A stretch of DNA of 64,000 nucleotides from assembly GCA_000146465.1 (NCBI GenBank), contig CP001946.1, one strand, 5' to 3'. Under the pieces are notes generated by a model. The model was not told where the DNA came from. It was given only the letters and a program-made list of their open reading frames with translations, and searched no databases. A program made the position numbers and the translations under genes. This document shows positions 1,703-38,661 of the stretch, piece after piece (position 1 is the first letter of the stretch; every line of letters starts with the position of its first letter).

Positions 1703-2890
1703 TTACAGCTTATCAAAAATGCTTTCGATTGCTTGGTAGTTCAACTTTCCGGAAATCCTTTTGTCCAAACTTCTGAACGCCTCAACAATAGATCCAAACT
1801 CCTCGTTTTTTCTTCTTCTCTTCCCCTTTTTGACACTACTTTTCGTCCTCTTCTCTCGCTCTCTCATGAACTCTCCATACATCTCTTCCCAGACAATCTC
1901 CCTTCTCTTGGTCTCCTCAGGCGAAAGGATGTTCCTCTCGATCTCCTCGGAGTCAGAGAGAATTTCGCTGTCCACACTGCTCTGTGGTGTCGAATAAGGA
2001 ATCACCTCGCTACTTCCCGACTCACACTCCTGCTTCTTTGCCATCTCCATTCTCTTCATCTTAACTGCAGGCGGATCCTCCTCCTTCTCAATCCATGTTG
2101 CATTGAACTCCTCGATACTAAGGTTGGCACTCTCTGTATCTCCTATCTCCTTCAGCCTCTTGTTGATTGTACTCACAGAGACATGGACTATCTTTGCTAT
2201 CTCGTATATACTTCTCTCCTCTCCCACTATCCGAGATGCAATCAGGAGTGCTGCTCCGCACAAGTTGTTTGGCCTTCTTCCAACAACAATCCAGTCCCTC
2301 TTCATCCTGCTTATCAGCCTTAGGGAAAGCCCCAGCACCTCGGTGCTTTCAAACCGCAGCCGAGACACAAACCGTGGCATATACAGAGATGGATCGATCA
2401 ACGGAATGTCAATTCCAAGCATGTTTGTTATCTTCAGAAAACTCTTTCCTATCTTAAACACATCGATATGCAGTGCATTCGAAAAATCCATCAGCATGTG
2501 TGGTGTCCTCTCCTGTCTGCAGACAATGTATATGCAGGCACTCAGAGTGTACAAAATCGATTTCCCCTTGCTTAGATTGTACTGGAGAAGAAGCTTGTAC
2601 CACCTGAACGAGCATTCCACGTGGTCAACCCCAAGCCCCAGAGATGCACATATACCGCTTATTGTGTTTTTGATGTAGTAACTGGAATCAACAAATCCGG
2701 TCCCCACATTTCGGGAATCCATCCCGACAATCTGCCCGTTCAATGTGGCTTTCGGTCCCTCTGTGTTGAAGTTCAGAGATGCAACAATTGCGTTCTCCTC
2801 CTGAACCATACCACACACTGTGCAGTAGACAGCTCCTTGTGCTGTGTCTTCCGCAAAATCCCCAGAGGAACAATTAGAACATATACCCAT
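1703..2890 (-). CDS. BRF1: TFIIIB subunit BRF1 (TFIIB-related factor), shortened to 395 aa
   Basis: N-terminal Zn ribbon CSNC...CTVCG. Cyclin repeats match BRF1: ACIYIVCRQERTPHMLMDFS, IDPSLYMPRF, LRLISRMKRDWIVVGRRPNNLCGAALLIASR. The post-cyclin block LSIEEFNATWIEKEEDPP corresponds to BRF1 homology region I. Confidence 0.85.
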   Translation of the reverse strand: MGICSNCSSGDFAEDTAQGAVYCTVCGMVQEENAIVASLNFNTEGPKATLNGQIVGMDSRNVGTGFVDSSYYIKNTISGICASLGLGVDHVECSFRWYKLLLQYNLSKGKSILYTLSACIYIVCRQERTPHMLMDFSNALHIDVFKIGKSFLKITNMLGIDIPLIDPSLYMPRFVSRLRFESTEVLGLSLRLISRMKRDWIVVGRRPNNLCGAALLIASRIVGEERSIYEIAKIVHVSVSTINKRLKEIGDTESANLSIEEFNATWIEKEEDPPAVKMKRMEMAKKQECESGSSEVIPYSTPQSSVDSEILSDSEEIERNILSPEETKRREIVWEEMYGEFMREREKRTKSSVKKGKRRRKNEEFGSIVEAFRSLDKRISGKLNYQAIESIFDKL

Positions 2891-2973
2891 GGGCTACTCG
2901 AAAGAGAAGAACTAAAAATCTTGTCTTGCCCATATCAATTAAGAAGTACATTTAATACCGAAGATACAGTCTG

Positions 2974-3705
2974 TCACTCGTATTCTTTAAAGACATATAA
3001 GTTGCTCCACACACAGAAGTCCTTTACAAGTGCCCTGGGCTCCTTTAGAAACTCAACCTCTCTATGCTTCTTCTCCAAGATCTCGTTCAACTCCCCATCT
3101 CCAATCCTTATTCCCTTCCGAGCCTCTCCTCCAACAAGATCCACAGATTCAAGCTTATACTCTACCTCTCCCTTCTTGCTTTCCTTCTCCAAGCTCGACT
3201 TAACAAATTCTTTCGTAAACTCATCGAACATCACATCGTCCTCCACCACCTCCTTCTCAACCTCGTTCATATCGCTCAGGTTGCTTCCGTTTCTCATCAC
3301 CATCCTCAGCTGTGCATTCTTCGGAAGGACTCGAAGGATGTGAAGAATAGACTCTTCGCTTCCCATGCTGTATCTATCGTTCAAGTAGTTTTTCATCGTG
3401 ACCTGATACCTCAGAAACGACAAAAGCTCAGGAATTTGATACTCATACTCCTCATAAACCTCCTCCACAAGAATTCTGCACACTAGCTCGGGAACAATCT
3501 CTCTTCCATGTCTCTTTTTTATTCGACATCCCAGTTGCTCAATATAGTATCTCAAGATGTCTGTCAGAACATTTAGTGCTTGGTCTGCCGTCTTATCAAA
3601 TCCACTCTGTGACAGCACCTCCACAACTGCAAGCTTCAGTATCTTAGTACTCATGTTTGATTTCATCTGAAATCCGAAGGAGTAATTTTTTATCCGACAA
3701 ATCAT
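2974..3705 (-). CDS. TAF8/TAF3-like TFIID subunit with a histone-fold BTP domain
   Basis: KILKLAVVEVLSQSGFDKTADQALNVLTDILRYYIEQLG matches the bromodomain-associated (BTP) histone-fold domain of TAF8/TAF3. The start could instead be an internal Met (MKSN.. or MSTK..). Confidence 0.6.
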   Translation of the reverse strand: MICRIKNYSFGFQMKSNMSTKILKLAVVEVLSQSGFDKTADQALNVLTDILRYYIEQLGCRIKKRHGREIVPELVCRILVEEVYEEYEYQIPELLSFLRYQVTMKNYLNDRYSMGSEESILHILRVLPKNAQLRMVMRNGSNLSDMNEVEKEVVEDDVMFDEFTKEFVKSSLEKESKKGEVEYKLESVDLVGGEARKGIRIGDGELNEILEKKHREVEFLKEPRALVKDFCVWSNLYVFKEYE

Positions 3706-3780
3706 GTGTCTATTTACCCATCAATTAACCAAAACCTTGGCCATGGAAATCCAGTCATTTGCCCAACTATTTCTCTCCCC

Positions 3781-4503
3781 TTACTCTTCTCCCAGGCTCT
3801 TCTTCATGGCCTCAAGCTCTTTAAGTAGGACTTCAAGTTGTAACTCAAATCTCTTTTGAAGAATCGGATTCAATGCACTTTCCATCTGCTTTCTCTTCTC
3901 CTCAACACTTTTCTCTAGACGTTCAAGCTCCTGGTTCTTTGGCTTCTCTTCCTTTTCATGCTTGGTCTCGGCAAAGGGGATTTTGGACTCTTCCGAACGT
4001 GCTTCAGAATAATCCACCAGCTTTTTCTCGATCTCTGCAGCCAGCATGTCCAGGTCATCAGACGTCTCTTTCTCCTCCTTTGTGATGACCTCAACCAGCC
4101 GGGCCCTCATGTCCTTTTCTAGAAGCTCCCCAACTTTCTTTTCAATCTCCTCAACATACTCGATCTTGCTATTTTTCTTCCGGAATCTTCTTGCCTTCGC
4201 ATACTTCAGCGGTGGGCACAACCCACTCAGCTCATGAATCTCCCGCTCCCTCTCAAAGTCAAAATCTCCATGCGGGTATACAACCACAAGAGTGGATATG
4301 TCTGCCACCTTGTAGTGTTGTCTATTATCCATTGTCTTTTGTGATTCGACTATACATGGGAGTCTTACAATTATCCCCGGATACTTCTGTCCACCATACG
4401 ACAAGACAACAGACTTTTCATTGCAAACCTCCAGTGTCGAGTTCTTGAGATCAACCTCATTCTTTATCGATTCATGAAGTCGGAGAATAAACTGCTGCTC
4501 CAT
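3781..4503 (-). CDS. TAF7: TFIID subunit TAF7
   Basis: EQQFILRLHESIKNEV, RLPCIVESQKT, KVADISTLVVV and SGLCPPLKYAKARRFRKK match the TAF7 N-terminal domain block for block. Confidence 0.85.
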   Translation of the reverse strand: MEQQFILRLHESIKNEVDLKNSTLEVCNEKSVVLSYGGQKYPGIIVRLPCIVESQKTMDNRQHYKVADISTLVVVYPHGDFDFEREREIHELSGLCPPLKYAKARRFRKKNSKIEYVEEIEKKVGELLEKDMRARLVEVITKEEKETSDDLDMLAAEIEKKLVDYSEARSEESKIPFAETKHEKEEKPKNQELERLEKSVEEKRKQMESALNPILQKRFELQLEVLLKELEAMKKSLGEE

Positions 4504-4561
4504 CTTCCAGGGCCTTTATTTATGCCATTCGAAGAAGTTCCCACATCCATTGGGAGCCCCG

Positions 4562-4936
4562 ATGAGGTCTTATATGAAGGACGGCCTGAGAATAGGATTC
4601 ACCAAGGAGACTTCTACAGATCATATCGAGGCTCTACCTCTGGAGATAGCTAGGAAGTTTGAACTACTATCGGGAATCTGCGACAACAGGTCCATACAAG
4701 AGTTTCCTGCTGCGATAATTAAAGAGATAGTCGAAATGTGCAATGATTTAAGAGACCTCGCTCCTCACTATAACATGCCTGAGGAATATGTTGAGTATGT
4801 TAGAGAGAACAAGGATGTCCTGGGATACTTTGAGGAATCCGAGAACAATCTTAAAGGAGAGGAAATGAGGATAATCAACAAGAGAAGGATATTCGATGTC
4901 TTTAGGAGTATGATGGAGAAAATGGAGGAGATGTAG
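4562..4936 (+). CDS. hypothetical protein, 124 aa
   Basis: The ORF-track start (4550) is TTG. The first ATG at 4562 is preceded by 'gagccccg'. The protein is acidic and helical with no recognised domain. It lies between TAF7 and Tra1. Confidence 0.4.
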   Translation: MRSYMKDGLRIGFTKETSTDHIEALPLEIARKFELLSGICDNRSIQEFPAAIIKEIVEMCNDLRDLAPHYNMPEEYVEYVRENKDVLGYFEESENNLKGEEMRIINKRRIFDVFRSMMEKMEEM

Positions 4937-5062
4937 AGTGTTTGATTCTGATGAAAGGCTTCCCGAGGTTATGGTTACAAATAAATCTTTTTATTACATG
5001 ATAACTGGGAGGAATTCTGTGTTTCCTCTGTAGACAATTTTTTCAGAGAAGAAAGAAAAAAA

Positions 5063-5072
5063 GGAAAAACCC
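5063..5072 (+). promoter_or_regulatory. C-rich (CCC) box immediately 5' of the Tra1 start codon
   Basis: 'aaaaaccc' abuts the ATG. The same CCC placement recurs at more than 15 other start codons in this window. A CCC-like signal near initiation codons is a described feature of Encephalitozoon genes. Confidence 0.45.
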
Positions 5073-8000
5073 ATGATGAAGGACCTTTTTGTAGGTAGTG
5101 AACCAAGCGAGGTGAAGGCCAACCGGCTCAAGAAGTACATGGAAAGCGGAAGATTCCTTGAAACTCTTTTTTTCCCACATGAGTTTTTGGAGTCACTAGT
5201 TTTATTTGCTATTCAGATACTCAACAGTACGGAACCTGAGAAAAAATCGTCATTTGTGTCTGGAGGGAATGAATCTCGCTACATTGTCCTCAGGCTTTTG
5301 AACAAGTTTTCGCTGAAAAGGATTAGGAATACAGGATTAGTGCATGCACTCCATTGTGTGCTTAGAAATGACAATCTCCCAAACGTGATTTTGTCACTGA
5401 AGGCATTAGGTTCTCTGAGCAGATCGGGGGTCATTGCAGGAGATCTGGTGGAGGTGCATGTTGGAGTCCTTCTTGGGATGGTTCACAACCTCTTTACAAA
5501 CCTGGAAAGTGGAGAAGAAGGGCTCATTGAGATATCGCTATTTACTCTTACAGAGATGCTGACCCATGCCAGGGTTTTTTTCCGTGGGTTGGAGTACCAT
5601 GCTGTGAAGATTGATCAATTTTTGGCCTGTGTGTATGGAAACATCAGAAGAGCTTTTGAAAACCGGAGATTCATGGATGGGATGATGCATAAAAGGACGT
5701 CTTCAATAAGCATGTGTTCTGGAATCTGTAGTCTCCTCAAGCTGACATATGAGCAGCTTCCTATTGTGTCGAAGTCAGGGCCTTATCATGTGTTTGCTTG
5801 TGAGGCAGCATTTGTTGGGATGTATTACTGTCCCTCCGATCTCCTGGACCTTAGGAAGGAGATCTACATGCTGTTTAGCAAGATGTGTATAGGAGACAAA
5901 GAGATGGTTCTTCCTATGATGGACAAAGTGTATATGGTTCCATTTCTTTTTTCTCCAGATGCACAGCCAATGAGCGTCAAGGGGATTGGAATGCTCTCTG
6001 AAATGCTCGTGCATGTTAAGGAGAACCTTAGCAAGGCAGCATACATGGAGTTTGGGTCGAAGGTATTCAATGTGCTTTTTTCAACCTGTTCTTCAATAAG
6101 GAGGCTATGCAAGGAAGTTCATGAGGGAGGAGAAGAAAGACAGAAATATCGGAGGAATGCAAGCGATATAATTAGCCAGGATATTGAAAGTCTCATAGTA
6201 TGTCTAGGGGCGGTAGAGAACACATGCAAATGCTTTGGAGGCAGGACAGGAGATTCCGAAGAACTCAGCCACATTTATCTCAAGAGCTTTTACGATATAA
6301 GGAATGGATTTGAAGGAATCCAGGGATTAGTAAGACTGGGATGCGCAGGCAAGGAGGAGGAGTTGAAGAAGGTTGTAAAGAAATTTGTCTCTGGATTTCG
6401 AGAAGTGATTGGAAGAGCGGGAATCCTTGAAAAGTCTGGAAATGGGATTGTCTTTTCTGTACCCGAGATCAATATCCTGTATGAGATATTTGAGAGGTCT
6501 TTTGATGTATTTTTGCATGAGTGCCTGTGCCAAGAGCAGGACATTGAAGAGTTTTTCTCTGTGCTGTCTCTTGTTAGAGAGCACATTGGAAGCGATATAG
6601 TCAAATGCCTTTCAGAAAGAATTGTGGAGTACAGCAAGAAAAACGGGGAGTTCTTTGGGATATGGAGATTGATGAGCAGCTCTGTAATTTTGGGAAACAC
6701 ATTCTGTGGATATGTACTTCCACGAATGATCGAGGAGCTCGATAGAGAGGGATTTGAATTTGTCAAGAGGGCAATGAGATATATTGTTCCGTTTTTTGGA
6801 AACGATATAAAGAAGATAAAGCGAGTCAATACATTCTTCATGCACAGGATAATATCAACTCTGTTGGCAGCCAAGAGGATGGAAAACTTCGAAATTTTGC
6901 TGGAGATCTTCAACATGTTTGGATCGATGCCTGAGAAGAGCAGCTTTTTCCAGAAATACATCTTCGACAACTTCTCAAGGATAGTTTCTCATCTTATGAA
7001 TCTTTATGAAGTTGAGGGAAAGAGCATATTTATAGAAATGATATTTTCCTTGCCAATAAGTATCAACCTACTTGAATCAGATATCCAATTTCTCATGAGA
7101 CCTATTGAAGAGGCCTTAATGCTTCATGGGCCAGTAAGAACCAAGGCGCTGTCTATTCTTGTGTATGTTCTTGACTTTTCAACACCAGATAAGATTTCGG
7201 GTCTTGAGAAGACATGGCAAAACATTTTAAATAACGTAGCAGAGGGCTTGAAGGATAGCACAATGCTGTCGTTGTGTTCGAGAATACTGGGGAAGCTCAA
7301 GAGCTATCACAAGACGTTTGTAGTAGATGGGAAGATGTTTGAAGAGACAAACGAAGATTTAAAACTTATTAGGATAGTGGTGGATGGAAAGCATGCAGTT
7401 CCTGGGCATCTCTTGTTTTTCGATGCAGTGCAGAAGATAAGGGGGGCCTTTGAGCTGTCTGAAAAGAGCTTTGGGCCTTCTGGTGTTCTCACCAGGTTCA
7501 GGAGTCTAGGGCCCCGATGTGGAGATGGAGAAGCCAAAGGCGCAGCATTCAGACTAGTGGAGAAGGTGGTGTGCCATCTGATGGGATGGAACTCCTCTGG
7601 AAAGAACTTGATTCAGAATTATTACGAGTCTCTTCTGGAGGAGATGGAAGAGATAGGAAGCATTCCAGACACATTGGATTACATACACTCGGTTCATGGG
7701 GTTATCTCTTCGTTAGGCGGGAGGAAATGCTCGGACAGTCGGCATTTGGCCCAGTATGTCTACGATGCAATCCTCACGCTCTTCAGTTGCCATGGAACCC
7801 CTTTTGAAAAGAAAGCTCTGGAACTCCTTCATTCTATTTTTGGAGTCGTGATACTCCACAAGATATCTACTCTTCACAGGCCCAAGGGGAAGAGATACAC
7901 GATTCTTCTTGACACAGACACATTCCTTGATGCACTTGTAGAGTCGTTTTGCGATACCGAGAACTCGATGCCTTTCAAGGTACTCTCTGTAATGTTTGTC

Positions 8001-11000
8001 CAGATGTACGAGATGTTTGGAAGGAAATGCGAATACTTCTGTGTTGAGATGTATAGGGCTGTTTTCTCCAAGCTCAAGGCCATGTGCAAGTCTTCGAACA
8101 AGAGATGTAGAGACGCTGGAATCAATGGAATCATATGTCTTGCAGCAACAATGCCTATTCGAGAGCTTGTGATGCTCCGAGTCCCGGAAGATTCGTTTTC
8201 ATGTACATACCTTTATCTTCTTCCTCGGGGATCCGAAGATTTCTCTCTTCCCCTCCGGCTGGTTGTCTTTATCTTGAGATTCAGATACAAGGGAATTAGG
8301 AATTATTTGCTCTCCTCTGGAATGGAGAGGCACTTCATGATGTCGCATTTCAGACCGTTTGTTGCAGGCCTCTTTGATGGGAGAAAGGATGTTATGGACT
8401 TTTCCCAAGCTGTGTTGAGAGAAGTGTTCCAGAGCTATGGGCCTCGCCTACTGGAAAGACACAAGGACATGGTTTTTGGGTTTTTCAAGAAGGAATATGT
8501 AATAGGAAGCAGGGAAACAATGATAATGCACTTGAAAGTGTTTATTTTCTGCGTTCGAGAGGGCAAGTGTCCGTTTGACGATTGCGAGATGAAGTATCTT
8601 ATCGAGAAGTTTCTGGATGGGATTGCAAGCAACGAGGAGTGGAGAGGAACTGGAGGGGTTTATATGGGCTTTGACCACTGTGAAAGAGACGAAAGCACAA
8701 ACAACGAGGACTTTTGCAAGTGCAACAGATGCGGGAAGGGCGAAGAAGACACAGAGATTGTTCTAGGAGGGATCCATAAGAAGTTATCTTCGCTATCTAT
8801 GAGGGATTTGATGGAAATTGCGCTTAAAAACAAAATGGATGTGGTTTGCGGAGATTGCAAGAAAAAGATCTACAGACATAAGGAGGAGTGGTCTCCTAGA
8901 TTCAGTAACGAGGGGGAGGAGTTGATTTACTGGATAAGAGAGTTTTATTTGCTTGTCATTGAGTACAGGAAGTCCTTTGAGGAGATAAGAACAGCGGTTT
9001 TGTATTTATTGAGATATGTTTCGGACGATTCCTCGGATTACCTGCAGAAGGCACACAATATACGGCCGCAAGAGACAGAAGAGGTAATATCAGAGGAAGT
9101 GGAGAAGTGTCTGTCTGAGAAGGTCGACTACAAGATCCTCAACATGTTACTGTGTGCACATTCGATATCGGGGATTCGGGAGAATCCAAGGGTAGGGATG
9201 CTTGTTCTGAAGATTCTGAAAGAATTCAGGATTCCGAAAGAGTTTGCAATAATAGCACAGAATGACAGATACTCGATGCTGGCAAAGGCGTATGAAATAG
9301 GAATTAGACTGAAAAACCAGGAGGGGCTGTGCAACGAGATTCTGGAAACATACTTTGTACTTGACGGATATGCCAAGAGTTACACTTCCAGGATGTATCC
9401 TCGAATGATTAAGTATGTAGAGGATCTTGGATCACAGTTTGTAAGTTGTATGTTCCGAAGAATTCAAGACCCATCGGCTTACGAGTTGTGTTCACAGCTC
9501 TGCAAGGACTCGGCCAAGCTAAGAGAAATGGTGTTTGGAATGAAGGACAGACTTGCGGAGAGAATATCGCAAATATATTGCAGACTGGAAGGAAATGACT
9601 CCATAGAAAAGGATGTGTTTGTGTATTCGTATCGGTTTCTTGATCTTGCAGGGTATGAGATGAAGCCTGTCGACATTCAGGTTATTCTTGGGATTTATGC
9701 TGATGTGAAGACAAAGCCCAGACATGCTGTTGAAATGAGGGGGCTGATAAATAGATGCATCGACAGGTTTTCTCCAGAGAACCTCGAGACACTGTTCAAC
9801 ATAGACCCATGGTTTATGTCTGTGGATGGGATAGACCCGGGATATCTTACAGAGGGGCTTTCACCCTTGACTCTTAGGGGGATTATCCGGAGTATTGATA
9901 AGAGAAACAGACCCATGATTGAGAATTTGAGCCTATCTCTTGGAGAAAACAGACACATGCTGATTGAGATGTTTGTGGAGATGGGGATCAGGTCTGAGAA
10001 GCTTATTGGATACTGCAAGGAGAATCTACACATCACGAACCTTAGAGGGCTCCTGCTCTACTATCTATGCACATTCGAGCCCTTGCATGTCTATTTTGAA
10101 CTCCTGTTCAAGCTCCCTTACGAAGACAGGAAGTACACGCTATACTGTCTAGAAAGGATTGTCGATGTTTTTGATCCTCTTCTCTTTGAAGAGATAATTC
10201 TGATTGTGCTGCGCTCTGAAGTAAGGTTCAAGACAAGTCTCTGTATTCTGTTTCCTCTACTTCTATCGAGGCCCAGTCTTATCAGCAAGAAGATTGTGCT
10301 TGAGCTTACAGGGTCGATCTATAAGCTTCTTGATTCAGAGAACTTCCCCCAGCAGAGAATGGGGTTTAAGCTGTTTGAAGTTCTATACAACAGGTGTCTA
10401 TTAGGAGATGGATCGGGGAATATATGCAGAGAGTATGATTGGATCATAAGGAACATATACACTCTCATGTTTGTGAGGTTTATTCATATGGATCAGGACT
10501 TGGATGGAGATCTTCTTGAAAAGTACAATCTGGAGCTTGTTTTTGAGTTGGTGGAGTACTCTCCCAAGGAGCTAAATCTTAACAACATGTTCAGCTTTCT
10601 CGAAGCGGAGATTCTGAGCAAGAAGAATGAGGAGTACAAGATATGGTTTTTGAAAAGCATTGGAATGGCCATAGCGCCGTATTTCCGATCAAGGGCTTTG
10701 GGAATCAAGGTTATTGAGTATCTGGTGCGCATTGGGATGTGGAATTACAAGCTTCTTCGGGAGGAGCTGGGGGTTGTTGTGTACGACCCGAGCCTACTGT
10801 ACAATCTCCTTTGCATGCTTTGTAGCAAAGCTGGTGAAAGAGCTGGTTTGGGATGCAAGGCTCATAGGGATGATGTAGAAAACATGGAGATATGCTTGAT
10901 AGTGATAAGACATTTATTTGCAGAGTACAATAGAGAGAGAGGAGAAGCCAACCAGAAATATGTGGAGGAAGGACTTGAGAAGCTGTTCTATGTTTTATCT

Positions 11001-14000
11001 CTATACTCTGAAATGAAGAATATTGTGTGCTCGGTAACTAGGCTGTTCGTGGAAGCATTCAAGGACAATTCCTCTCGGATAGATCCATTAGTAAGCAAGA
11101 TAAGTTTCTTGATGTCTGATTTCAGAACGTCGCTTGCAGACAAGATTGAAATGGCTTGTCTCTTGAGCAATCGAGGGCATGACAATGAGTTTCTTAGTGA
11201 GATGCTGCTTCCGGCCTTCAACAATTATCTCTACTCTGGAGTTACCTTTCCGTCAGGCCTGCAGAAGTTCTTTATGAAAGGAGTCAGTTCGAAAAACAGC
11301 ATCTTGAGGAATGGATATCTAGATCTGATGAACCGCATTGTTCCTGTAAGCAAGTGGATGAGACTTAAGTATCTGCTGGAAATGGAATGGAAGCACAACG
11401 CAAAGATAGGATACACAATGACGGCGATGATGATCCTTTCTTGCCACACAGCAGAACTGGAGGCAGAAAAGTACTCGGAAATAAGACCGAGCAAGGATAT
11501 TGAATATCCTTGGTCACGGGAGGGGATGAGATGCAAGGGAAATGTGAGCAGATGCAGTGGACTTGTTGCGAATCTTCTTGAAGATGTTGGCCTATACAGG
11601 TCCAAGGCGTCGAAGCCAGACCTCCTGGAAATTCTGTACCACTTCGACGATTCCCTACTTCCGGTGCTATCTGGAGTCTTAAGAACTACTGTATGTGGAT
11701 TGGATTCCGAGAAATGTAAAAGCATATTCGAAGGCTTTGTGAAGTTCTGCTCGGAGGTTACAGGAGAAGGGAAACTTCTTGGAGCCCTTGTTAGGGGTCT
11801 TGGGCCTATATATAGACATGCAGATCTATATGAGCTTATTAAGGTATTCCGAGGAGGAGAGGGATGGTACACGCTACTGGAGTATGCAGATGATAGGCAG
11901 AAGACAGAGATATACAGGAGATTGATGAACTTGGATGAATACTTTGGAATGTCGCGGTCGGTGTGTATTTTTCCTGAGACGATGCAGGCATATTTCCTTC
12001 AGCAAGTGGGAAAGACCAAGGAAGCACAGGATCTCTATGAGGAGATCCAAGCCAGAGCAGGAAAGCACAAGATATCTTTTGACGAAAGGGAGTACAAGCT
12101 GTGGCAAGATGAGTGGGTGGCATGTGCAAAAGAACTGCAGCAATGGGATGTATGCTACGATGCAGGAGTGGAGATCGGGGATGGCTTGCTAAGTGGAGAA
12201 TCGTTGTGGCATCTTTCGAACTTCACAAGCCAGAAGGCAGTGGAGAAACTCAAAAGCGTGATTGGCAAGGGAGTAGGATTTGAAAGAGAATTCCTCGATG
12301 TATTTGCAGATATATTTATGAAGTATTCGGCAGAGAGGATCAAGGGAATCCTAACAAAGAACATTGCAGAGCTCAGGAGTTACCCCGTAGGAAGTGGAGC
12401 AAACCTAAGAAATCTTATGTATCTGCAGATCATCATAGAAATGGTTGAGGCAGAGCCTATTTTTAACGACAAGATAGACTCGATAGAAGCATTGACATCG
12501 ATATCCTTCCGATGGAAGGACAAGGAGCCGTCCATCTACAGCTCTTTTGCAGAATGGAGCCTCTTCAAGACATGGAGAAAACATGTATATTCGAGATTGG
12601 GAATGGGAGAGAAGATGTGTGGCAGAGAGATGGGATACAAGCAGCCAGAAAGAGGTTACACAGAGGAGATGGGAAATTCCTTGGGTAGAAAGCCTATAGC
12701 ATCGCATTTGTTTTCTCCAAAAGAGATGAATGAGAACTATGCAAAGATAAAAAAGGAACTGGTGGCCCGAGGAACAAACGAATTGGCAAAGACTCTGAAC
12801 ATGTTTTCCAAGGCAGCCATCGACCATGGATACTATGATGTGGCTCTATTCCATCTTAAAGAAGTCTTTGACCTAAGCAGTGTAAAGGTAGGGGATGCCT
12901 TCCAGAAGGTTGTTTATGAGCTACTTTGCTTTCTCGGCAAGAAAGAGTACAAGATAGGAGCCGAGCAGTGCATGTCGGCAAACATACAACATTTCAGTGA
13001 TACACAGAATTCGGTACTATTCAACATCAAGGGGCTGTTCAATGAGAAGCTTGGAAAGGCTTCGGATGCCGAAAAATTCTATTTGCAGTCTGCACAGATA
13101 TGCAACACAGTTGGAGAAAACTGGCTCACATGGGCGAGTTTCTTGTTTGGTAGGATCGATGGAGATGCTCCAGAAGTAAAGGAAGACGTCTTTGTTGCTC
13201 TTCTACAAGCCATTACCTACTGCAACGGCCCAAATGCAAGGAAAGGAATTCTTAAGATGATTCTACTTATGGGAGAGCATTCCTCGCTCTGTGATGTGGA
13301 GTTGTTCCACAAGGTTCTTCAAGAGATTGACATCTCTCGATTTATATACTTTATTCCGCAACTGATTGGGCTACTGGAAAAGGAAGACTCAAGGTTGGTG
13401 CAAGCCATACTTGGCAAGATCTCGGAAGAGTATCCGCAAGCAGTGATAGGGCCCCTTAAGGCAGCTAAGGAAAGAATAAGAAGAAGCTTGGGGCTTGGAA
13501 AGGAAGATATAGAATGCAAGGTGGGGGAACACAAGGTAGAAGGTAGAAGTAGCGAAGATTCAAAGAGTCTTGGGACTGGACTGGTGACTGGAGAGAAGAA
13601 CATGTTTTTGGAGAATGTTATGTGTATATACAACCGGATAAAAAACGCCCAACCAGGGAAAGAGTTCTGGAAGATCCTTCACTATCTTCACAATTCGCTG
13701 AACTCCTTCGCCTTTAAGGAGGAGGAGCTTGTGTATCTGGAGATCGAGAAGATCTTCAACAGTGCTGTGTCGCATGTTGTGCATGGGGCTGTTCCATCGG
13801 GCCTTGGCCATGCTAAGATTCTGAACGAGCTTATTTTCCAGGTTTCTGTTTCTTCCCTAAGCCGGAAACTCAAGGAAGAGCTTACATCTTCCATTCTCAA
13901 GATGAGGTGCATCTGCCCTCTTGAGAACATCGATGAAATGGTACGGTTCAAAAGTAAGGTGCAGAAGATTGTAGAAGAATCCTTCCATAGGATGGACAAG

Positions 14001-15380
14001 TCCGAGGAGTCTGAGGTGAATCTACTGCTATACAGATCCGACTACAAGCATCGAGTATTTGGACAATACTCGGAAATAAGAAGAAGTTACAAGAGCCTTG
14101 CGAGCATAGAGATGTTTGAGCCTCGGCAGCCCTACATGTACAGAAAAAGAATGGGATGCAATAGAATTCACCTGAGAGGAAGCGATGGGAAGATGTACAG
14201 ATACGAGATGAAAGAGTTAAGGAAGATGAGGTTCTCTGAGTTTGTCCTTCCACAGATATCTTTGATGATTAACGAGGCGATGGGCGAGGACACCAACTTG
14301 CGAAGGAGAGGTGCGGAGTTGAGGTTGTTTGTTCCCTTTATTGCTAGTGAAGTTCTTGCATTGAAATGGATCAAGGAGCCTGTCTATTACATGGATAGTA
14401 TATTGGAAGAGGGGCTAAGTAGATACAAGATGAACATTGATCAATGTGTGCTTCTTTATCTTGATCACTTTGCAACTATCTACGATGGGTTAGACTCAAG
14501 TCCAGGGCATTTCGAGAACAGATATCAGCTGGAGAAGGGACTCACTGCAAGCCTAAAGCCGAGGATTCAAGGAGACGAATGCCCCAATATAAGGAAGAAA
14601 AAAGGCTTTCTTGAAAGCAAGGAGTCGCAGGAGAACCTCATAAACAATGTTAGAATGGTTATTGAGAGGCAGAGGGAGAAGTACACAAGTGGTTTGAGAC
14701 AGAACGAAGTCGAGTGTCTTGGATGCAATGAAAGAGGAGAGGGGATTTCTCCATGTACCTATAGATATGAAACCTCAAAGCGGCAAAGATACATGGCTTA
14801 CGAGAAGGTATACAACACCTTCAAGAAAACTAGCTTTGTGGATGATTACTTCAAGCTTATTTATGGAAACCTGGGAGGATACTTCCGATTTAAAAACAAA
14901 CTTCTTTCCAGTTATTCAGCCAACAGTGTCTTTTTGTACACGTTCTCTGTTGTAGACAGGAGGCCAAGAAACCTTGCCATCACCAAGACTACCGGCTGTT
15001 TTATGAATAGAGACGTCTGTTGCGAGGAAGCTGAGATATCGAGCAAAGGAAAGGGAATGGGGGCCATAGGACCAGGATACCAGAAGCTCTTTGGGAAAGA
15101 AGGGATAGAAGGCACAATGGTGTCTATTATGTATCATTATGCCGGGATGGTAAACAAGGGAGATTGGAGTAAGGATCTGGTGAAAGCTCTACTTGAAGGC
15201 AGGTTTATAGACATGACGGGAAAAGGACTCAAGGGAGCTCACAAGGAAATGCTAAGTAGAGTCTCTGAGATGATTGGAAAAGGCGAGGATGGGACCCATA
15301 ATGTGATTCCGATGGTTAGTGAGTGGATGGACATGTTCAAGCTAGCACAGATTGATCCAAGACATATGTGCTGGATGTGA
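5073..15380 (+). CDS. TRA1: Tra1/TRRAP-like PIKK-family scaffold protein (pseudokinase), 3435 aa
   Basis: A single 10.3-kb ORF with an ATG preceded by 'aaaaaccc'. It has long helical-repeat (HEAT/TPR-like) regions. The C-terminal PI3K-like domain has a degenerate catalytic loop (VDRRPRN in place of DRHxxN; no DFG). The FATC-like end is ...AQIDPRHMCWM. The size and pseudokinase character fit Tra1/TRRAP rather than TOR, ATM or ATR. Confidence 0.75.
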   Translation: MMKDLFVGSEPSEVKANRLKKYMESGRFLETLFFPHEFLESLVLFAIQILNSTEPEKKSSFVSGGNESRYIVLRLLNKFSLKRIRNTGLVHALHCVLRNDNLPNVILSLKALGSLSRSGVIAGDLVEVHVGVLLGMVHNLFTNLESGEEGLIEISLFTLTEMLTHARVFFRGLEYHAVKIDQFLACVYGNIRRAFENRRFMDGMMHKRTSSISMCSGICSLLKLTYEQLPIVSKSGPYHVFACEAAFVGMYYCPSDLLDLRKEIYMLFSKMCIGDKEMVLPMMDKVYMVPFLFSPDAQPMSVKGIGMLSEMLVHVKENLSKAAYMEFGSKVFNVLFSTCSSIRRLCKEVHEGGEERQKYRRNASDIISQDIESLIVCLGAVENTCKCFGGRTGDSEELSHIYLKSFYDIRNGFEGIQGLVRLGCAGKEEELKKVVKKFVSGFREVIGRAGILEKSGNGIVFSVPEINILYEIFERSFDVFLHECLCQEQDIEEFFSVLSLVREHIGSDIVKCLSERIVEYSKKNGEFFGIWRLMSSSVILGNTFCGYVLPRMIEELDREGFEFVKRAMRYIVPFFGNDIKKIKRVNTFFMHRIISTLLAAKRMENFEILLEIFNMFGSMPEKSSFFQKYIFDNFSRIVSHLMNLYEVEGKSIFIEMIFSLPISINLLESDIQFLMRPIEEALMLHGPVRTKALSILVYVLDFSTPDKISGLEKTWQNILNNVAEGLKDSTMLSLCSRILGKLKSYHKTFVVDGKMFEETNEDLKLIRIVVDGKHAVPGHLLFFDAVQKIRGAFELSEKSFGPSGVLTRFRSLGPRCGDGEAKGAAFRLVEKVVCHLMGWNSSGKNLIQNYYESLLEEMEEIGSIPDTLDYIHSVHGVISSLGGRKCSDSRHLAQYVYDAILTLFSCHGTPFEKKALELLHSIFGVVILHKISTLHRPKGKRYTILLDTDTFLDALVESFCDTENSMPFKVLSVMFVQMYEMFGRKCEYFCVEMYRAVFSKLKAMCKSSNKRCRDAGINGIICLAATMPIRELVMLRVPEDSFSCTYLYLLPRGSEDFSLPLRLVVFILRFRYKGIRNYLLSSGMERHFMMSHFRPFVAGLFDGRKDVMDFSQAVLREVFQSYGPRLLERHKDMVFGFFKKEYVIGSRETMIMHLKVFIFCVREGKCPFDDCEMKYLIEKFLDGIASNEEWRGTGGVYMGFDHCERDESTNNEDFCKCNRCGKGEEDTEIVLGGIHKKLSSLSMRDLMEIALKNKMDVVCGDCKKKIYRHKEEWSPRFSNEGEELIYWIREFYLLVIEYRKSFEEIRTAVLYLLRYVSDDSSDYLQKAHNIRPQETEEVISEEVEKCLSEKVDYKILNMLLCAHSISGIRENPRVGMLVLKILKEFRIPKEFAIIAQNDRYSMLAKAYEIGIRLKNQEGLCNEILETYFVLDGYAKSYTSRMYPRMIKYVEDLGSQFVSCMFRRIQDPSAYELCSQLCKDSAKLREMVFGMKDRLAERISQIYCRLEGNDSIEKDVFVYSYRFLDLAGYEMKPVDIQVILGIYADVKTKPRHAVEMRGLINRCIDRFSPENLETLFNIDPWFMSVDGIDPGYLTEGLSPLTLRGIIRSIDKRNRPMIENLSLSLGENRHMLIEMFVEMGIRSEKLIGYCKENLHITNLRGLLLYYLCTFEPLHVYFELLFKLPYEDRKYTLYCLERIVDVFDPLLFEEIILIVLRSEVRFKTSLCILFPLLLSRPSLISKKIVLELTGSIYKLLDSENFPQQRMGFKLFEVLYNRCLLGDGSGNICREYDWIIRNIYTLMFVRFIHMDQDLDGDLLEKYNLELVFELVEYSPKELNLNNMFSFLEAEILSKKNEEYKIWFLKSIGMAIAPYFRSRALGIKVIEYLVRIGMWNYKLLREELGVVVYDPSLLYNLLCMLCSKAGERAGLGCKAHRDDVENMEICLIVIRHLFAEYNRERGEANQKYVEEGLEKLFYVLSLYSEMKNIVCSVTRLFVEAFKDNSSRIDPLVSKISFLMSDFRTSLADKIEMACLLSNRGHDNEFLSEMLLPAFNNYLYSGVTFPSGLQKFFMKGVSSKNSILRNGYLDLMNRIVPVSKWMRLKYLLEMEWKHNAKIGYTMTAMMILSCHTAELEAEKYSEIRPSKDIEYPWSREGMRCKGNVSRCSGLVANLLEDVGLYRSKASKPDLLEILYHFDDSLLPVLSGVLRTTVCGLDSEKCKSIFEGFVKFCSEVTGEGKLLGALVRGLGPIYRHADLYELIKVFRGGEGWYTLLEYADDRQKTEIYRRLMNLDEYFGMSRSVCIFPETMQAYFLQQVGKTKEAQDLYEEIQARAGKHKISFDEREYKLWQDEWVACAKELQQWDVCYDAGVEIGDGLLSGESLWHLSNFTSQKAVEKLKSVIGKGVGFEREFLDVFADIFMKYSAERIKGILTKNIAELRSYPVGSGANLRNLMYLQIIIEMVEAEPIFNDKIDSIEALTSISFRWKDKEPSIYSSFAEWSLFKTWRKHVYSRLGMGEKMCGREMGYKQPERGYTEEMGNSLGRKPIASHLFSPKEMNENYAKIKKELVARGTNELAKTLNMFSKAAIDHGYYDVALFHLKEVFDLSSVKVGDAFQKVVYELLCFLGKKEYKIGAEQCMSANIQHFSDTQNSVLFNIKGLFNEKLGKASDAEKFYLQSAQICNTVGENWLTWASFLFGRIDGDAPEVKEDVFVALLQAITYCNGPNARKGILKMILLMGEHSSLCDVELFHKVLQEIDISRFIYFIPQLIGLLEKEDSRLVQAILGKISEEYPQAVIGPLKAAKERIRRSLGLGKEDIECKVGEHKVEGRSSEDSKSLGTGLVTGEKNMFLENVMCIYNRIKNAQPGKEFWKILHYLHNSLNSFAFKEEELVYLEIEKIFNSAVSHVVHGAVPSGLGHAKILNELIFQVSVSSLSRKLKEELTSSILKMRCICPLENIDEMVRFKSKVQKIVEESFHRMDKSEESEVNLLLYRSDYKHRVFGQYSEIRRSYKSLASIEMFEPRQPYMYRKRMGCNRIHLRGSDGKMYRYEMKELRKMRFSEFVLPQISLMINEAMGEDTNLRRRGAELRLFVPFIASEVLALKWIKEPVYYMDSILEEGLSRYKMNIDQCVLLYLDHFATIYDGLDSSPGHFENRYQLEKGLTASLKPRIQGDECPNIRKKKGFLESKESQENLINNVRMVIERQREKYTSGLRQNEVECLGCNERGEGISPCTYRYETSKRQRYMAYEKVYNTFKKTSFVDDYFKLIYGNLGGYFRFKNKLLSSYSANSVFLYTFSVVDRRPRNLAITKTTGCFMNRDVCCEEAEISSKGKGMGAIGPGYQKLFGKEGIEGTMVSIMYHYAGMVNKGDWSKDLVKALLEGRFIDMTGKGLKGAHKEMLSRVSEMIGKGEDGTHNVIPMVSEWMDMFKLAQIDPRHMCWM

Positions 15381-15447
15381 TGACCAATTAAAGTCGATTT
15401 TTGTTTTCTAGGATTCTTCATCCAAAAGAATGGGTGGGTGATGACCC

Positions 15448-16523: not shown

Positions 16524-17063
16524 CTAGAGAGCAGCTGGAACAAACCTCTCAATAAAGCATCTTTGGCCTCTATATGTTATCAATGGGACTCCTGGAATTG
16601 TCTTTATTCTCTGCCTCAGAGCCGTATCCGAAGTTGCTACAATATAGCATCGATGTGCAGAAACTCTGTTGAAGATGCAGTCGTCTGCGTAAGTCCCCTT
16701 ATGGTCGCATTCGAGCCTTTGGACATCGTCCCCTCTGATCAGTGCGAGTGCAACACGGAAGGGCCTCCCAAGCTTCTCCAGTTCTCCAACCACACATTCT
16801 GGAACACATATTTTGATGCTTGCATTCACTGTCTTCATTAGCTGTTCCCTGATGTTGTACTTCTTTCTTACACAGTCGTTGATGAAGTTTGTATCGAGAA
16901 TGATATTATAAGGAGGCCTGAGCCTGTGGTTCAGTAGAAATCCTTCTGTGTTTCTTGGATTTTCACCGCCATCGTGAAGATTCTCAACAGGCCTTGTCTT
17001 TGCCTTCTTTCTATCCAAAATGTTAGCAACTCTCTTGCTTTTTATTGCATGCTTCACCCCCAT
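16524..17063 (-). CDS. FCF1: rRNA-processing PIN-domain protein Fcf1/Utp24
   Basis: PPYNIILDTNFIN, CVPECVVGELEKLGRPFRVAL, CDHKGTYADDCIFNRV, CYIVATSD, IPGVPLI. Confidence 0.9.
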   Translation of the reverse strand: MGVKHAIKSKRVANILDRKKAKTRPVENLHDGGENPRNTEGFLLNHRLRPPYNIILDTNFINDCVRKKYNIREQLMKTVNASIKICVPECVVGELEKLGRPFRVALALIRGDDVQRLECDHKGTYADDCIFNRVSAHRCYIVATSDTALRQRIKTIPGVPLITYRGQRCFIERFVPAAL

Positions 17064-17793
17064 CGGTCTCGAGAATACTAAGTTTTTTATCTAAATCGGA
17101 TTCCCCTTCCTCCTCCGCTCTGCATCTGTCCTGATATATAGGCTCAAAATGCCCATGGGTGTAGAAAATGGAGATCTCGTGAGGATGGTCTCCATAAACA
17201 TCCTCATTGTCTTTTGTGATATCTACAACATGAATTCGAACAGGTATACTTCCAGAAAGGGCACATATCTCCACACATCCGGCCTGCTGGTAGAAGGGAT
17301 CTACAAATCTTGTGCAGTACTTACCCACGTCCATCTCCGGGATGTAGGGCTGATACTTGTCCGGATTCGACTTTATTTCTGTTGAAACAATAAGCCTTAG
17401 GTATGCAACACAATCATATAGTGAGTAAAGAGGAACATCTTCGATCTTTTTTGTCCCATTGGCTATGTCCACCAAGATTTCGACAAACGAATCATAAAAC
17501 CCTTTGTATCCCAGCTCGTCTATATTATACAGGCAGAGGGCTTCATTCGTCTTATCAAATGCATCAATCAAAGTTCTTAATAGAACATCCTTTTCAGCAG
17601 CCAGGAGGTCTGCAAGCGCAACTGCATAGGAGATGTACAGGCAATTCCCATCCCGGATACATTCTCGGAACATTGTGTATGACTCCATGATTCTCTGAAT
17701 CCGAGCTGTGTACAAGGGATCGTGGAAGTACTTATGTTCTATAAGGTTCTTCTTGGCGCTGGTGGATGCCTCCGTATTTGTTTTCTCGGCCAT
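17023..17793 (-). CDS. Otubain-type OTU deubiquitinase
   Basis: Cys box RDGNCLYISYAV (DGNCFYRA-like) and C-terminal His box HGHFEPIY (PGHYDILY in OTUB1). The 34-aa acidic tail extends over the Fcf1 start. Confidence 0.8.
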   Translation of the reverse strand: MAEKTNTEASTSAKKNLIEHKYFHDPLYTARIQRIMESYTMFRECIRDGNCLYISYAVALADLLAAEKDVLLRTLIDAFDKTNEALCLYNIDELGYKGFYDSFVEILVDIANGTKKIEDVPLYSLYDCVAYLRLIVSTEIKSNPDKYQPYIPEMDVGKYCTRFVDPFYQQAGCVEICALSGSIPVRIHVVDITKDNEDVYGDHPHEISIFYTHGHFEPIYQDRCRAEEEGESDLDKKLSILETDGGEACNKKQESC

Positions 17794-17922
17794 TGGAAAG
17801 GGGTAGAGGAAAGAAGGAAAATTGTTGATGATCTCGGCATAGGGAGCATCTCCAAGACTCCAACCAGCAGAATACTTCTAGGAGTTTTCGTTTTATCGGA
17901 AATATATGAAAACCCTTGAGGC

Positions 17923-19988: not shown

Positions 19989-20082
19989 CTTAATTTGTGG
20001 GAAGCAAATAGGCTCTAATGAAGAATAAAATGTATATATGTGGTTTCGTGATATTAGTGGGTCCCTGCGGCCGGCCCGTCGA

Positions 20083-20165
20083 GGTGGCGTGGCCGAGCGG
20101 TCTAAGGCGGCAGACTTAAGATCTGCTATCGGAAGATGTCGTGGGTTCGAACCCCACCGCCACCA
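20083..20165 (+). tRNA. tRNA-Leu (anticodon TAA), type II with long variable arm
   Basis: Acceptor stem GGTGGCG/CGCCACC, anticodon stem gcaga/tctgc with loop cTTAAga, extra arm tatcggaagatgtcg, T-arm gtggg-TTCGAAC-cccac, discriminator A. Confidence 0.9.
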
Positions 20166-20168
20166 TTC

Positions 20169-20180
20169 TTTTGTGTTTTT
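20169..20180 (+). terminator. Pol III T-run terminator downstream of tRNA-Leu
   Basis: tcttttgtgttttt lies directly 3' of the tRNA. Confidence 0.5.
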
Positions 20181-20246
20181 CCTCTCCTCAGAGTCCTGTC
20201 TCTGGACAATCTGCCAAAGACTTCCAAGTCTAAAAAACGAAAAGAT

Positions 20247-20900
20247 TTAATAGAGAGTTATTGGTGATGTTTGATTGGTCTTGATCATCACTCCCTTCAA
20301 GCTTTGCGAGCCCTTCTTCAGGTATGAGATGAGCAGCCCCATCCCTGTCTTGATGTTTTCATATATGTGGTCTGTTTCCATTCCAGTATGGCCCACAGGA
20401 AACGAGGTAACTGCAAAGTCCTTGATACGGAGCTTGTAAGACCTTTTTGCCGTCTCAAATACCGTCTTGATATCGTCGTCGTTCTTAAGAATATAGGGTG
20501 TCTTTCCACACCGAAGAATGTTCTTGAGCTGGAAGACCTTGTTATATCCTGGGCAGAGGATAAAATACTTGTTCCTCTTCAGCACCTCGTCTCTCTTGGC
20601 TTTCTTGTTGTCTCCGCTGATCTCTTCAATAGACACATACGGTACCTCTGCATCAACACATGTCTGAACATGTGCCTCATCGGCAATCACAATTGTCTTG
20701 TCGAGTCTTCGCACCTTGTAGGGAAAGGCCATGTCCTTCGACAGTTTATTATCTTTCCTGGCATCATATCCCTTGAGATTCACTTGGATCTGGATCGTAG
20801 CTGTCTTCTCTGCATCCTCGTTTTCCTTCAGACGGTTGATAACCGAGATAATTCTCTTGGCCTCAAGAAATGCAAGTTGCTCCTCGCCTTGCTTGCTCAT
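20247..20900 (-). CDS. RPL10A: 60S ribosomal protein L10a (uL1)
   Basis: MSK...IQIQVNLKGYDARKDNKLSKDMAFPY, FILCPGYNKV, IKDFAVTSFPVGHTGM and the SPITLY end match the L1/L10a family. Confidence 0.9.
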   Translation of the reverse strand: MSKQGEEQLAFLEAKRIISVINRLKENEDAEKTATIQIQVNLKGYDARKDNKLSKDMAFPYKVRRLDKTIVIADEAHVQTCVDAEVPYVSIEEISGDNKKAKRDEVLKRNKYFILCPGYNKVFQLKNILRCGKTPYILKNDDDIKTVFETAKRSYKLRIKDFAVTSFPVGHTGMETDHIYENIKTGMGLLISYLKKGSQSLKGVMIKTNQTSPITLY

Positions 20901-21040
20901 CTTACCCCTTGTAAAGGCAAAAATTTTTAAATCTTCTTCAGGATCCGAGAAAGATCCTTCTATTTAAACAGCTCTATGGCATTCTATTTTATTATGTCTG
21001 TGTTCTTGGAAATGAACATAGCCCATGGCATAGGCCCTGG

Positions 21041-25362: not shown

Positions 25363-25497
25363 GCGACTAGCTGGCTCTTTACGATATTAAAGAACGGGTT
25401 TCTCCATAATCTATCTTGGGATTTTCGCAGTCTGTTATGTGGGAGGGATTTTGGAACTTTCTGGAGCAGGGAAGTTAAAAGAAAAGAAGGGTAGCCC

Positions 25498-27310: not shown

Positions 27311-27412
27311 TCTAAGATGGGCTCACGAGGGTACTACCTTAATAAAATCCTCTCTTTGGTTTGTGTTCTTTGAGATTTGGTGAACGTTTTTTGGAGGAGA
27401 GGAAAACCCTTA

Positions 27413-28108: not shown

Positions 28109-28179
28109 GGATGTAGGCAATGATACGATCTTGGCCTGGGAAATTAGAGGTAAATTTTTTTTCGAGTCTACCCTTGTGA

Positions 28180-28862
28180 ATGAAGGTAAGTGGACTTTGA
28201 AAGACTAATTTCAGTTAAACATAGCATATCCAACGAATGGTACACAGAAGATGTTTGAGATTGAAAGAAAGGTGGAATCAAGGCTTTACGACAAGAAGAT
28301 AGGAGATCAGTTTGATGGGGGAATTCTCGGAGAAGAGTTTGAAGGAACAATTATGGAGATCACAGGAGGAGACGACTATCAGGGCTTTCCCATGGTAGGG
28401 GGGCACTTGACGAAGAAGAGAGTAAGGCCTCTTCTATCGAAGGGGGATACAGGATACCGATGCAGACGCAAGGGAGAGAGGCGGCGCAAAAGCGTCCGTG
28501 GATCGATTGTTTCTGAGCAGACCTGTGTACTGAGCCTGATAATTCTGCGAGCCGGGGAGAAGGAGATAGATGGGCTTACAAATGTTGTCAATGACGTTTC
28601 CCATCTTCCCAGGAAGGAGAAGAAGCTTAGGAAGATGTTTGGGATTCCTGCAGAGGAAGAAAACGTTGTGGGATACATCAGGAACATATTTAAGTCTGAA
28701 TGTGAAGATCCAAAGAAGATACCCAAGATTCGGTGCAATGGAAAGAAAATAAGGAAGGAAAAAGAAAGAAGAGAGGAGGCTAGGAAGATCAGAGGAGAAA
28801 GAAGAAGAATATTGGAGGAGGAAAGGAAAGCATATCTTGAGAAGTACTTCAATAAAGCCTGA
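28180..28862 (+). CDS. RPS6: 40S ribosomal protein S6 (eS6), spliced: join(28180..28185, 28215..28862)
   Basis: The ORF-track ORF (28251..) lacks the conserved N-terminus. Exon 1 is ATG AAG (MK) at 28180-28185 and exon 2 starts TTA AAC ATA GCA..., giving MKLNIAYPTNGTQKMFEIERKV, which matches the RPS6 N-terminus [24 protein letters not shown]. The body has LLSKGDTGYRCRRKGERRRKSVRGSIV. Confidence 0.85.
28186..28214 (+). other. spliceosomal intron (29 nt) in RPS6
   Basis: gtaagtggactttgaaagactaatttcag has a canonical GTAAGT donor, an ACTAAT branch-like motif 5 nt before the TTTCAG acceptor, and an in-frame stop (TAA 28206-28208) inside the intron. Confidence 0.8.
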
Positions 28863-29837: not shown

Positions 29838-29907
29838 CCCAGGGCTGTATTTTCGGCTTCAAGTCCTTGGCCTTGCCCACATGTCTATTTAATTCTTGGA
29901 GAAAAAA

Positions 29908-31113: not shown

Positions 31114-31148
31114 AAAGAAATAAAAGCTTATTGGACCCTTTTGTTGGT

Positions 31149-38649: not shown

Positions 38650-38661
38650 CCCTTCAAGGTT

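Follow-up and report, generated by a model that had tools for sequence, protein, structure and literature searches.

Many genes in a 64-kb stretch of the Encephalitozoon intestinalis genome (the window, meaning the whole stretch analysed) have a short run of cytosines just before the start codon, which raises the question of whether this run is a genuine element and at which level it acts. A sequence-only reading of the window had pointed to a CCC or CCCC tract close upstream of many ATGs and had taken it as a core-promoter signal of genes with almost no 5' untranslated region (5'UTR). We have followed up this claim, and the tract proved to be far commoner than chance would predict and conserved between species. 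These tracts are the CCC-like motif of microsporidia, a feature that was described in 2009 and is in routine annotation use. With a rough probability of 0.8, they act most likely at the DNA level as an initiator-like core-promoter element.

Frequency, position and conservation of the tract

The starts were picked blind to CCC, taking the first ATG after a stop codon in 54 non-overlapping open reading frames (ORFs) of at least 70 amino acids (aa), and the 2481 other ATGs of both strands were used as control. The sequence-only reading had staked its claim on CCC being commoner in the 12 nt before ATGs than base composition would give, and in the 64-kb window it is: a sense-strand CCC lying fully within -12 to -1 precedes 26/54 first ATGs and 196/2481 (7.9%) of the others (odds ratio 10.8, Fisher p=1.6e-14). 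When the range was extended to -15 to -1 the figures were 29/54 and 10.1% (Fisher p=5.5e-15), the odds ratio being about 10.5 over the two ranges. CCC was the top enriched of the 64 trinucleotides, 5.3-fold.

The enrichment is confined to the immediate vicinity of the start. Counted per bin of 15 nucleotides (nt), the CCC-positive genes (out of 54) were 29 at -15 to -1, 4 at -30 to -16, 3 at -45 to -31 and 6 at -60 to -46, while bins within the coding sequence (CDS) held 1-5/54 (one at +4 to +18) and the bin after the stop codon 4/54. Same-strand GGG remained flat, with 5-11 genes in every bin, indicating that the CCC signal is strand-specific.

Two circumstances could favour an artefact, either of base composition or of a reader picking ATGs that happen to follow CCC: the starts in the sequence-only reading had been chosen by eye, and the C content is slightly raised at -15 to -1 (23.6%, vs 17.1% further upstream). 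When each gene's -40 to -1 segment was shuffled, a mean of 4.2 ± 1.9 genes carried CCC, with a maximum of 13 in 5000 shuffles; when only -15 to -1 was shuffled, which keeps the local C content, the mean rose to 8.2 and the maximum to 16 in 5000, against 29 observed, showing that the cytosines are clustered into runs beyond mere C-richness. Moreover, the mechanically chosen first ATGs yield the same result as the starts chosen by eye, and the result was replicated at ortholog-anchored starts in four other species. The comparison with other ATGs, the positional bins, the GGG strand control and the two types of shuffle rule out chance and composition, while the mechanical first ATGs and the ortholog-anchored starts rule out a selection bias of the reader; an artefact is, in our opinion, extremely improbable.

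Several starts were corrected without using CCC, i.e., those of RPL21e, MCM and IP_trans by their orthologs, that of RPS6 by its intron and Pfam, and that of APC10 by Pfam, and one ORF overlapping tRNA-Leu was removed from the corrected set. With the corrected starts, CCC lies within -15 to -1 in 32/54 genes and within -12 to -1 in 29/54.

The conservation of the tract was studied around the 6-phosphogluconate dehydrogenase (6PGD) gene (48085-49443), whose protein is 100% identical to that of E. intestinalis ATCC 50506. The syntenic ±10 kb around 6PGD were compared in E. hellem, E. romaleae, E. cuniculi and Ordospora colligata, yielding a 20-gene block with identical gene order across the compared loci; the comparison covers about 38-59 kb of the window. 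At ortholog-aligned starts, CCC within -15 to -1 was found in 14/20, 13/20, 14/19, 14/19 and 13/20 genes of the five species, against a background at other ATGs of 10-11% in the three Encephalitozoon comparison loci and 3% in Ordospora (p 2e-8 to 9e-15). In MAFFT alignments of the upstream regions of the four Encephalitozoon species, identity to E. intestinalis was 0.89 for the CCC bases, 0.67 for the other bases of -15 to -1 (p=5.6e-5) and 0.64 for -40 to -16 (p=4.4e-6). In Ordospora the tract is retained but often displaced by a few nt, as expected for a functional element without strict register.

The 15 example strings quoted in the sequence-only reading were all found in the window directly before an ATG; among them, that of RPS6 (ctacccttgtga followed by ATG) lies at 28168-28182 and that of APC10 at 61577-61590. 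The coordinates under which the pattern had been filed, 5060-5075, contain the Tra1 example alone (+), whereas the pattern spans the whole window; that segment reads aaaaaggaaaaaCCC followed by ATGATG, the Tra1 example being aaaaaccc followed by ATG. The gene labels that we checked also hold, i.e., amino-acid transporter, BIR, GWT1, NOG1, 6PGD, Ham1/ITPase, RPS6 and APC10, as do, from the gene tables, SecE, LSM and S4/RPS9.

Anatomy of the tracts and the published motif

The tracts of the window are as follows, with positions relative to the ATG in brackets and, in the last line, a G-run variant:

2891-2893, minus strand: CCC (-3 to -1) of the BRF1/TFIIB-like gene, ATG 2890
4510-4512, minus strand: CCC (-9 to -7) of the TAF7-like gene, ATG 4503, head-to-head with the 124-aa ORF (orf124)
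4557-4560, plus strand: CCCC (-5 to -2) of the 124-aa ORF, ATG 4562
5070-5072, plus strand: CCC abutting ATG 5073 of Tra1 (3435-aa ORF 5073-15380, Pfam FAT and Tra1_ring)
15445-15447, plus strand: CCC (-3 to -1) of a 350-aa ORF, ATG 15448
17800-17803, minus strand: CCCC (-10 to -7) of the otubain-like gene, ATG 17793
17913-17915, plus strand: CCC (-10 to -8) of the amino-acid transporter gene, ATG 17923
25495-25497, plus strand: CCC (-3 to -1) of a 74-aa ORF, ATG 25498
27407-27409, plus strand: CCC (-6 to -4) of the BIR-domain gene, ATG 27413
28153-28173, plus strand: RPS6 box AAATTTTTTTT, then CCC at 28171-28173 (-9 to -7), ATG 28180
29842-29844, minus strand: CCC (-7 to -5) of the pseudouridine synthase gene, ATG 29837
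29914-29916, plus strand: CCC (-3 to -1) of GWT1, ATG 29917
31136-31138, plus strand: CCC (-13 to -11) of the gamma-tubulin complex component gene, ATG 31149
33877-33879, plus strand: CCC (-10 to -8) of a 356-aa ORF, ATG 33887
36472-36474, plus strand: CCC immediately before the in-frame Met14 (36475) of the WD40-like gene
38650-38652, plus strand: CCC (-12 to -10) of a 92-aa ORF, ATG 38662, kept in all four Encephalitozoon species
41421-41423, minus strand: CCC (-6 to -4) of an 80-aa ORF, ATG 41417
42239-42241, minus strand: CCC (-11 to -9) of a 262-aa ORF, ATG 42230, with ttctttaaCCCata kept in four species
42343-42346, plus strand: CCCC (-6 to -3) of NOG1, ATG 42349, with a AATTTTTT box upstream, kept in five species
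45988-45990, minus strand: CCC (-6 to -4) of a 240-aa ORF, ATG 45984
46043-46045, plus strand: CCC (-9 to -7) of a 189-aa ORF, ATG 46052
47030-47032, minus strand: CCC (-4 to -2) of the PX-domain gene, ATG 47028
48077-48080, plus strand: CCCC (-8 to -5) of the 6-phosphogluconate dehydrogenase gene, ATG 48085
49515-49517, plus strand: CCC (-9 to -7) of the Ham1/ITPase gene, ATG 49524, found among the five species in E. intestinalis only
51363-51365, plus strand: CCC (-6 to -4) of the SecE/Sec61-gamma gene, ATG 51369
52856-52858, minus strand: CCC (-8 to -6) of RPL21e at its ortholog-supported start 52850, with a AAATTTTT box upstream
53172-53175, minus strand: CCCC (-5 to -2) of the LSM/Sm gene, ATG 53170
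53306-53318, plus strand: RPS9 AAAAAATTTT box, CA, and CCC at 53316-53318 (-6 to -4), ATG 53322, nearly identical in five species
58758-58760, minus strand: CCC (-8 to -6) of the 1335-aa DEAD-box helicase gene, AAATTTTTG before CCC, ATG 58752
59599-59601, minus strand: CCC (-15 to -13) of the methyltransferase gene, ATG 59586
59673-59679, plus strand: CCCACCC, two tracts (-7 to -5 and -3 to -1), of a 250-aa ORF, ATG 59680
61546-61548, minus strand: CCC (-15 to -13, within a CCCC run) of a 357-aa ORF, ATG 61533
61581-61583, plus strand: CCC (-7 to -5) of APC10, ATG 61588
20905-20908, minus strand: GGGG variant (sense -8 to -5) of RPL10A, ATG 20900, with a AAAAATTTTT box upstream

The first genes of this list belong to a group of four adjacent genes for general transcription machinery, with an added ORF (1703-15380), comprising the BRF1/TFIIB-like gene (1703-2890, -), a histone-fold Bromo_TP_like TAF (2974-3705, -), TAF7/TAFII55 (3781-4503, -) and Tra1 (5073-15380, +), with the 124-aa ORF, unassigned in function, between the last two.

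In the 32 genes with CCC at corrected starts, the run is 3 nt long in 26 and 4 nt long in 6. It is preceded by A in 15, G in 10, T in 7 and C in none, and followed by T in 18, A in 10 (six of these being the A of an abutting ATG) and G in 4, the usual form being purine-CCC-T/A, so that the bracketing by a 5' purine and a 3' pyrimidine that defines the published motif is also seen here. Most tracts start at -10 to -3. The spacer between the run and the ATG varies over 0-12 nt without a constant register, and is only 0-1 nt long in 9/32 genes. Position -3 holds A in 12, C in 20, G in 10 and T in 12 of the 54 genes. A fixed Kozak-type context was ruled out on these grounds, i.e., the variable spacer of 0-12 nt and a position -3 without purine preference. 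As separate observations on the start context, 43/54 genes have a purine at +4 (20 A and 23 G), the same bias as reported for E. cuniculi (PMC2803860, Table 2), and few carry T at -1 or at -2 (5/54 each).

An AAATTT-type or A/T-rich box lies upstream of the tract at RPS6 (aaatttttttt..CCC; aaattttttttcgagtctaCCC), RPS9 (aaaaaattttcaCCC), RPL21e (aaatttttc…gCCC) and RPL10A, and also at NOG1 and the DEAD-box helicase gene (aaatttttgCCC). RPL10A has no CCC but a G-run in place of the C-run (aaaaattttt…aaGGGGtaag). GGG without CCC within -15 to -1 occurs in three genes if the WD40 start is taken as 36436, so that CCC or GGG is found in 35 genes vs 32 with CCC.

This architecture is that of the CCC-like motif described in microsporidia in 2009 (Cornman, PMC2685015; Peyretaillade, PMC2803860) and since reported from T. 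hominis (PMC3486916) and from Nematocida (PMC3514677). In E. cuniculi, rapid amplification of cDNA 5' ends (5'RACE) of six mRNAs showed 5'UTRs of 1-7 nt, and the CCC-like signal lay either where the transcripts begin or upstream of that point; an AAATTT-like box was found before ribosomal-protein genes, a GGG-like substitute at L24, L10A and L4, and 364 start codons were re-annotated using these signals (PMC2803860). The motif has also served to search four Encephalitozoon genomes, that of E. intestinalis among them, for small CDSs (PMC4589312), CCC or GGG was detected ahead of the start of transcription in all 18 E. cuniculi non-coding RNAs (ncRNAs), whichever the polymerase (PMC5499648), and the MicroAnnot pipeline, benchmarked on E. 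intestinalis, incorporates the motif (PMC10815200).

The tracts of the window are this motif. They show all of its defining features that are open to a sequence test, including the G-run at RPL10A. They come from the same phylum and genus, consist of a sense C triplet at most 15 nt from the ATG with a peak at about -10 to -3, have a purine before and a pyrimidine after the run, are accompanied by an A/T or AAATTT box at ribosomal-protein genes, and are useful for picking start codons. There is no substantive difference. A perfect CCC is found at ~55-60% of starts here and the motif is described at 'most' or nearly all genes in E. cuniculi, but the published counts also include one-base-degenerate motifs, GGG variants and corrected starts.

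The tracts also resemble the metazoan and yeast initiator (Inr) and TCT initiators, these being short pyrimidine-rich elements at or near the transcription start and downstream of a TATA-like box, with a role in positioning initiation. In particular, those of RPS6, RPL21e and RPS9 read CCCT(T), which recalls a pyrimidine start like those of TCT or 5'-terminal oligopyrimidine (5'TOP) genes. The consensus of the CCC motif differs from those of Inr (YYANWYY or BBCABW) and TCT (YC+1TTTYY). Unlike Inr and TCT, the microsporidian motif has also been reported at RNA polymerase III and ncRNA genes (PMC5499648). With a Kozak context the tracts share the proximity to the AUG, the usefulness for identifying the true start and the +4 purine bias, but a Kozak context has a fixed register and a purine at -3, whereas the tract floats over 0-12 nt and -3 is most often C (20/54).

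Level at which the tract acts

The published reading is that of a promoter signal proximal to the transcription start, with 5'UTRs of <7 nt (PMC2803860; also PMC4589312, PMC5499648). The core-promoter interpretation put forward from the window, with almost no 5'UTR, coincides with it and appears supported, on the basis of RACE in the sister species E. cuniculi. According to this model, the CCC tract would work on the DNA as an initiator-like element fixing the transcription start a few nt downstream; the mRNAs would begin 1-7 nt before the AUG, being nearly leaderless, and the first AUG of the transcript would be used as start without a Kozak-type context. The A/T-rich, AAATTT-like (TATA-like) box that often lies upstream, strongest at ribosomal-protein genes, may help to place the start and would set the expression level. 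We infer that the motif itself directs initiation.

The arrangement of the genes is informative on this point. The window has the compact, near-intronless organization of microsporidia, with a median intergenic gap of ~80 nt. Among the 52 genes with a defined upstream neighbour, CCC was found in 17/20 (85%) of those lying head-to-head with it, on their own sense strand, vs 15/32 (47%) of those lying tail-to-head (Fisher p=0.008). The proposal that the tract is a terminator or poly(A)-type 3' signal of the upstream gene was ruled out, given that 17/20 divergent genes are positive and CCC after stop codons is found in 4/54. As a test independent of ATGs, the window was searched with Rfam and a tRNA scan, which returned two tRNAs only: tRNA-Leu (TAA; 20083-20165, +) has CCC at -8 to -6 and at -20, and tRNA-Thr (AGT; 51227-51301, +) has GGGG at -12 to -9, a consistent but anecdotal result (n=2). 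A 70-aa ORF (20038-20250) overlaps tRNA-Leu and is probably spurious. The floating distance to the ATG, the absence of a purine preference at -3, the 17/20 divergent genes and the two tRNAs together favour a transcriptional over a translational role.

It could be argued that the tract works in the mRNA as a translation-initiation context (Kozak- or Shine-Dalgarno-like, or a 5'-terminal pyrimidine feature) that the reduced microsporidian ribosome or its initiation factors would read, and not as a DNA promoter. The tract indeed always adjoins the start codon in sense orientation, in the nine genes with a spacer of 0-1 nt it may lie within or at the transcript 5' end, and the CCCTT of RPS6 and the CCCT of RPL21e, RPS9 and the DEAD-box helicase gene superficially look like a 5'-terminal pyrimidine start. 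We find this quite unlikely, because the distance to the ATG has no fixed register, the published 5' ends leave most tracts, those ending 3-12 nt upstream, partly or wholly outside the mRNA (PMC2803860), CCC or GGG also precedes ncRNA genes (PMC5499648) as well as both tRNA genes found here, and -3 lacks the Kozak purine. That the tract is instead a 5' processing (cleavage) site freeing monocistronic mRNAs from overlapping multigene transcripts appears very unlikely: although such transcripts have been described from E. cuniculi and from A. locustae, the motif is placed by Peyretaillade et al. under "5' transcript processing" (both PMC2803860) and the spacers here are tiny, the motif is commonest precisely in head-to-head spacers, where a same-strand upstream precursor is lacking, it is coupled to upstream TATA-like A/T boxes in a promoter-type architecture, and it precedes tRNA and ncRNA genes too.

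Several observations weigh against the initiator-like promoter element. A perfect CCC within 15 nt is present at only ~55-60% of genes, leaving ~40% without it. Brr6, MCM, orf367 and IP_trans lack CCC in every species compared, the first three showing ATCCT alone in all or almost all of them and IP_trans an upstream GGG; with well-supported genes devoid of CCC in all species, the motif is either not obligatory or tolerates degeneracy. In the 9/32 genes with the run 0-1 nt from the ATG, part of it would lie in the mRNA if transcripts start 1-7 nt upstream, and for this possible partial transcription a role at the RNA level is kept as a minor rival. Transcript mapping comes from a small set in the sister species, i.e., six protein-coding genes by RACE, 18 ncRNAs and some small CDSs. 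The literature searched reports neither a mutational test of the motif nor a binding factor, and a search of it for genome-wide transcription-start maps of the motif returned nothing beyond the RACE-based papers.

The orientation bias is a mildly new observation, the rest being already known. All the genes without CCC in the five species (MCM, orf367, Brr6 and IP_trans) lie tail-to-head, and CCC-less genes in this orientation might have no promoter of their own and be expressed by read-through from operon-like multigene transcripts, a possible but unlikely explanation. If true, the presence or absence of CCC would divide the genome into transcription units. The bias could equally come from small ORFs that are not genuine, from wrongly placed starts or from degenerate forms of the motif (ATCCT).

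Start codons and annotation

The sequence-only reading had also proposed that the tract helps to choose true starts, and this is borne out in the cases that can be tested, i.e., RPL21e, RPS6 and the WD40-like gene; with ~40% of genes lacking a perfect CCC, the signal aids the choice but cannot decide it. The first ATG of RPL21e (52943) gives a 191-aa product and has no CCC, while a product of 160 aa results from the ortholog-supported Met (52850), which has gCCCtagaa upstream. RPS6 (28180-28862, +) carries a 29-nt spliceosomal intron (28186-28214) right after codon 2, the sequence reading ATGAAG, GTAAGTGGACTTTGAAAGACTAATTTCAG (the intron) and TTAAAC, with the signals GTAAGT…ACTAAT…CAG. Once spliced, it matches Pfam Ribosomal_S6e in full length (1-125/125; 163.8 bits), vs 16-125 and 140.2 bits without splicing, and its ATG at 28180 has aCCCttgtga directly upstream. 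In the WD40-like gene (36436-37434, +), the first ATG (36436) abuts the stop (36435) of the upstream aminotransferase gene, whereas Met14 (36475) has ggggatCCC directly upstream and the Pfam domain begins at residue 16 of the longer ORF, so that the true start is probably 36475 rather than 36436. Of 15 genes without CCC at the first ATG, only this one gains a CCC at a nearby in-frame downstream ATG, indicating that most CCC-less genes are not simply mis-started.

Other starts deserve a comment. The gene at 47119-48012 (-) (orf297, start 48012) is annotated as 262 aa in E. cuniculi EcunIII-L and in one E. intestinalis assembly, while the annotations of E. hellem and E. romaleae give it 298 aa. 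E. intestinalis and E. cuniculi likewise retain the longer N-terminus (MEEKIKSLEEKL…), with acagCCCtgattgtt upstream in the latter, and given this conservation the starts of the 262-aa versions look wrongly set. The CCC of this gene is at -18 in E. intestinalis, beyond the 15-nt range. Tracts farther out are also found at orf272 (50293, +), with gCCCttaaag at -21 kept in all four Encephalitozoon species and Ordospora, and at the C48 peptidase gene (37774, +), with CCC at -20. The position of these three tracts suggests longer 5'UTRs or a true start downstream. In the Fcf1/PIN gene, the first ATG (17063, -) has no CCC and sits 41 nt inside the 3' end of the otubain-like gene (17023-17793), reflecting either a genuine overlap or a different start of Fcf1/PIN.

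These results have practical value only; the window gives no new leverage on the factor that reads CCC or on whether transcription starts inside or after it. The motif supports three calls here, i.e., RPL21e at 52850, the RPS6 start at 28180 together with the 29-nt intron, and the WD40-like gene at 36475, and it is a reliable aid for locating start codons and small genes in microsporidian genomes, for which it is already in use.

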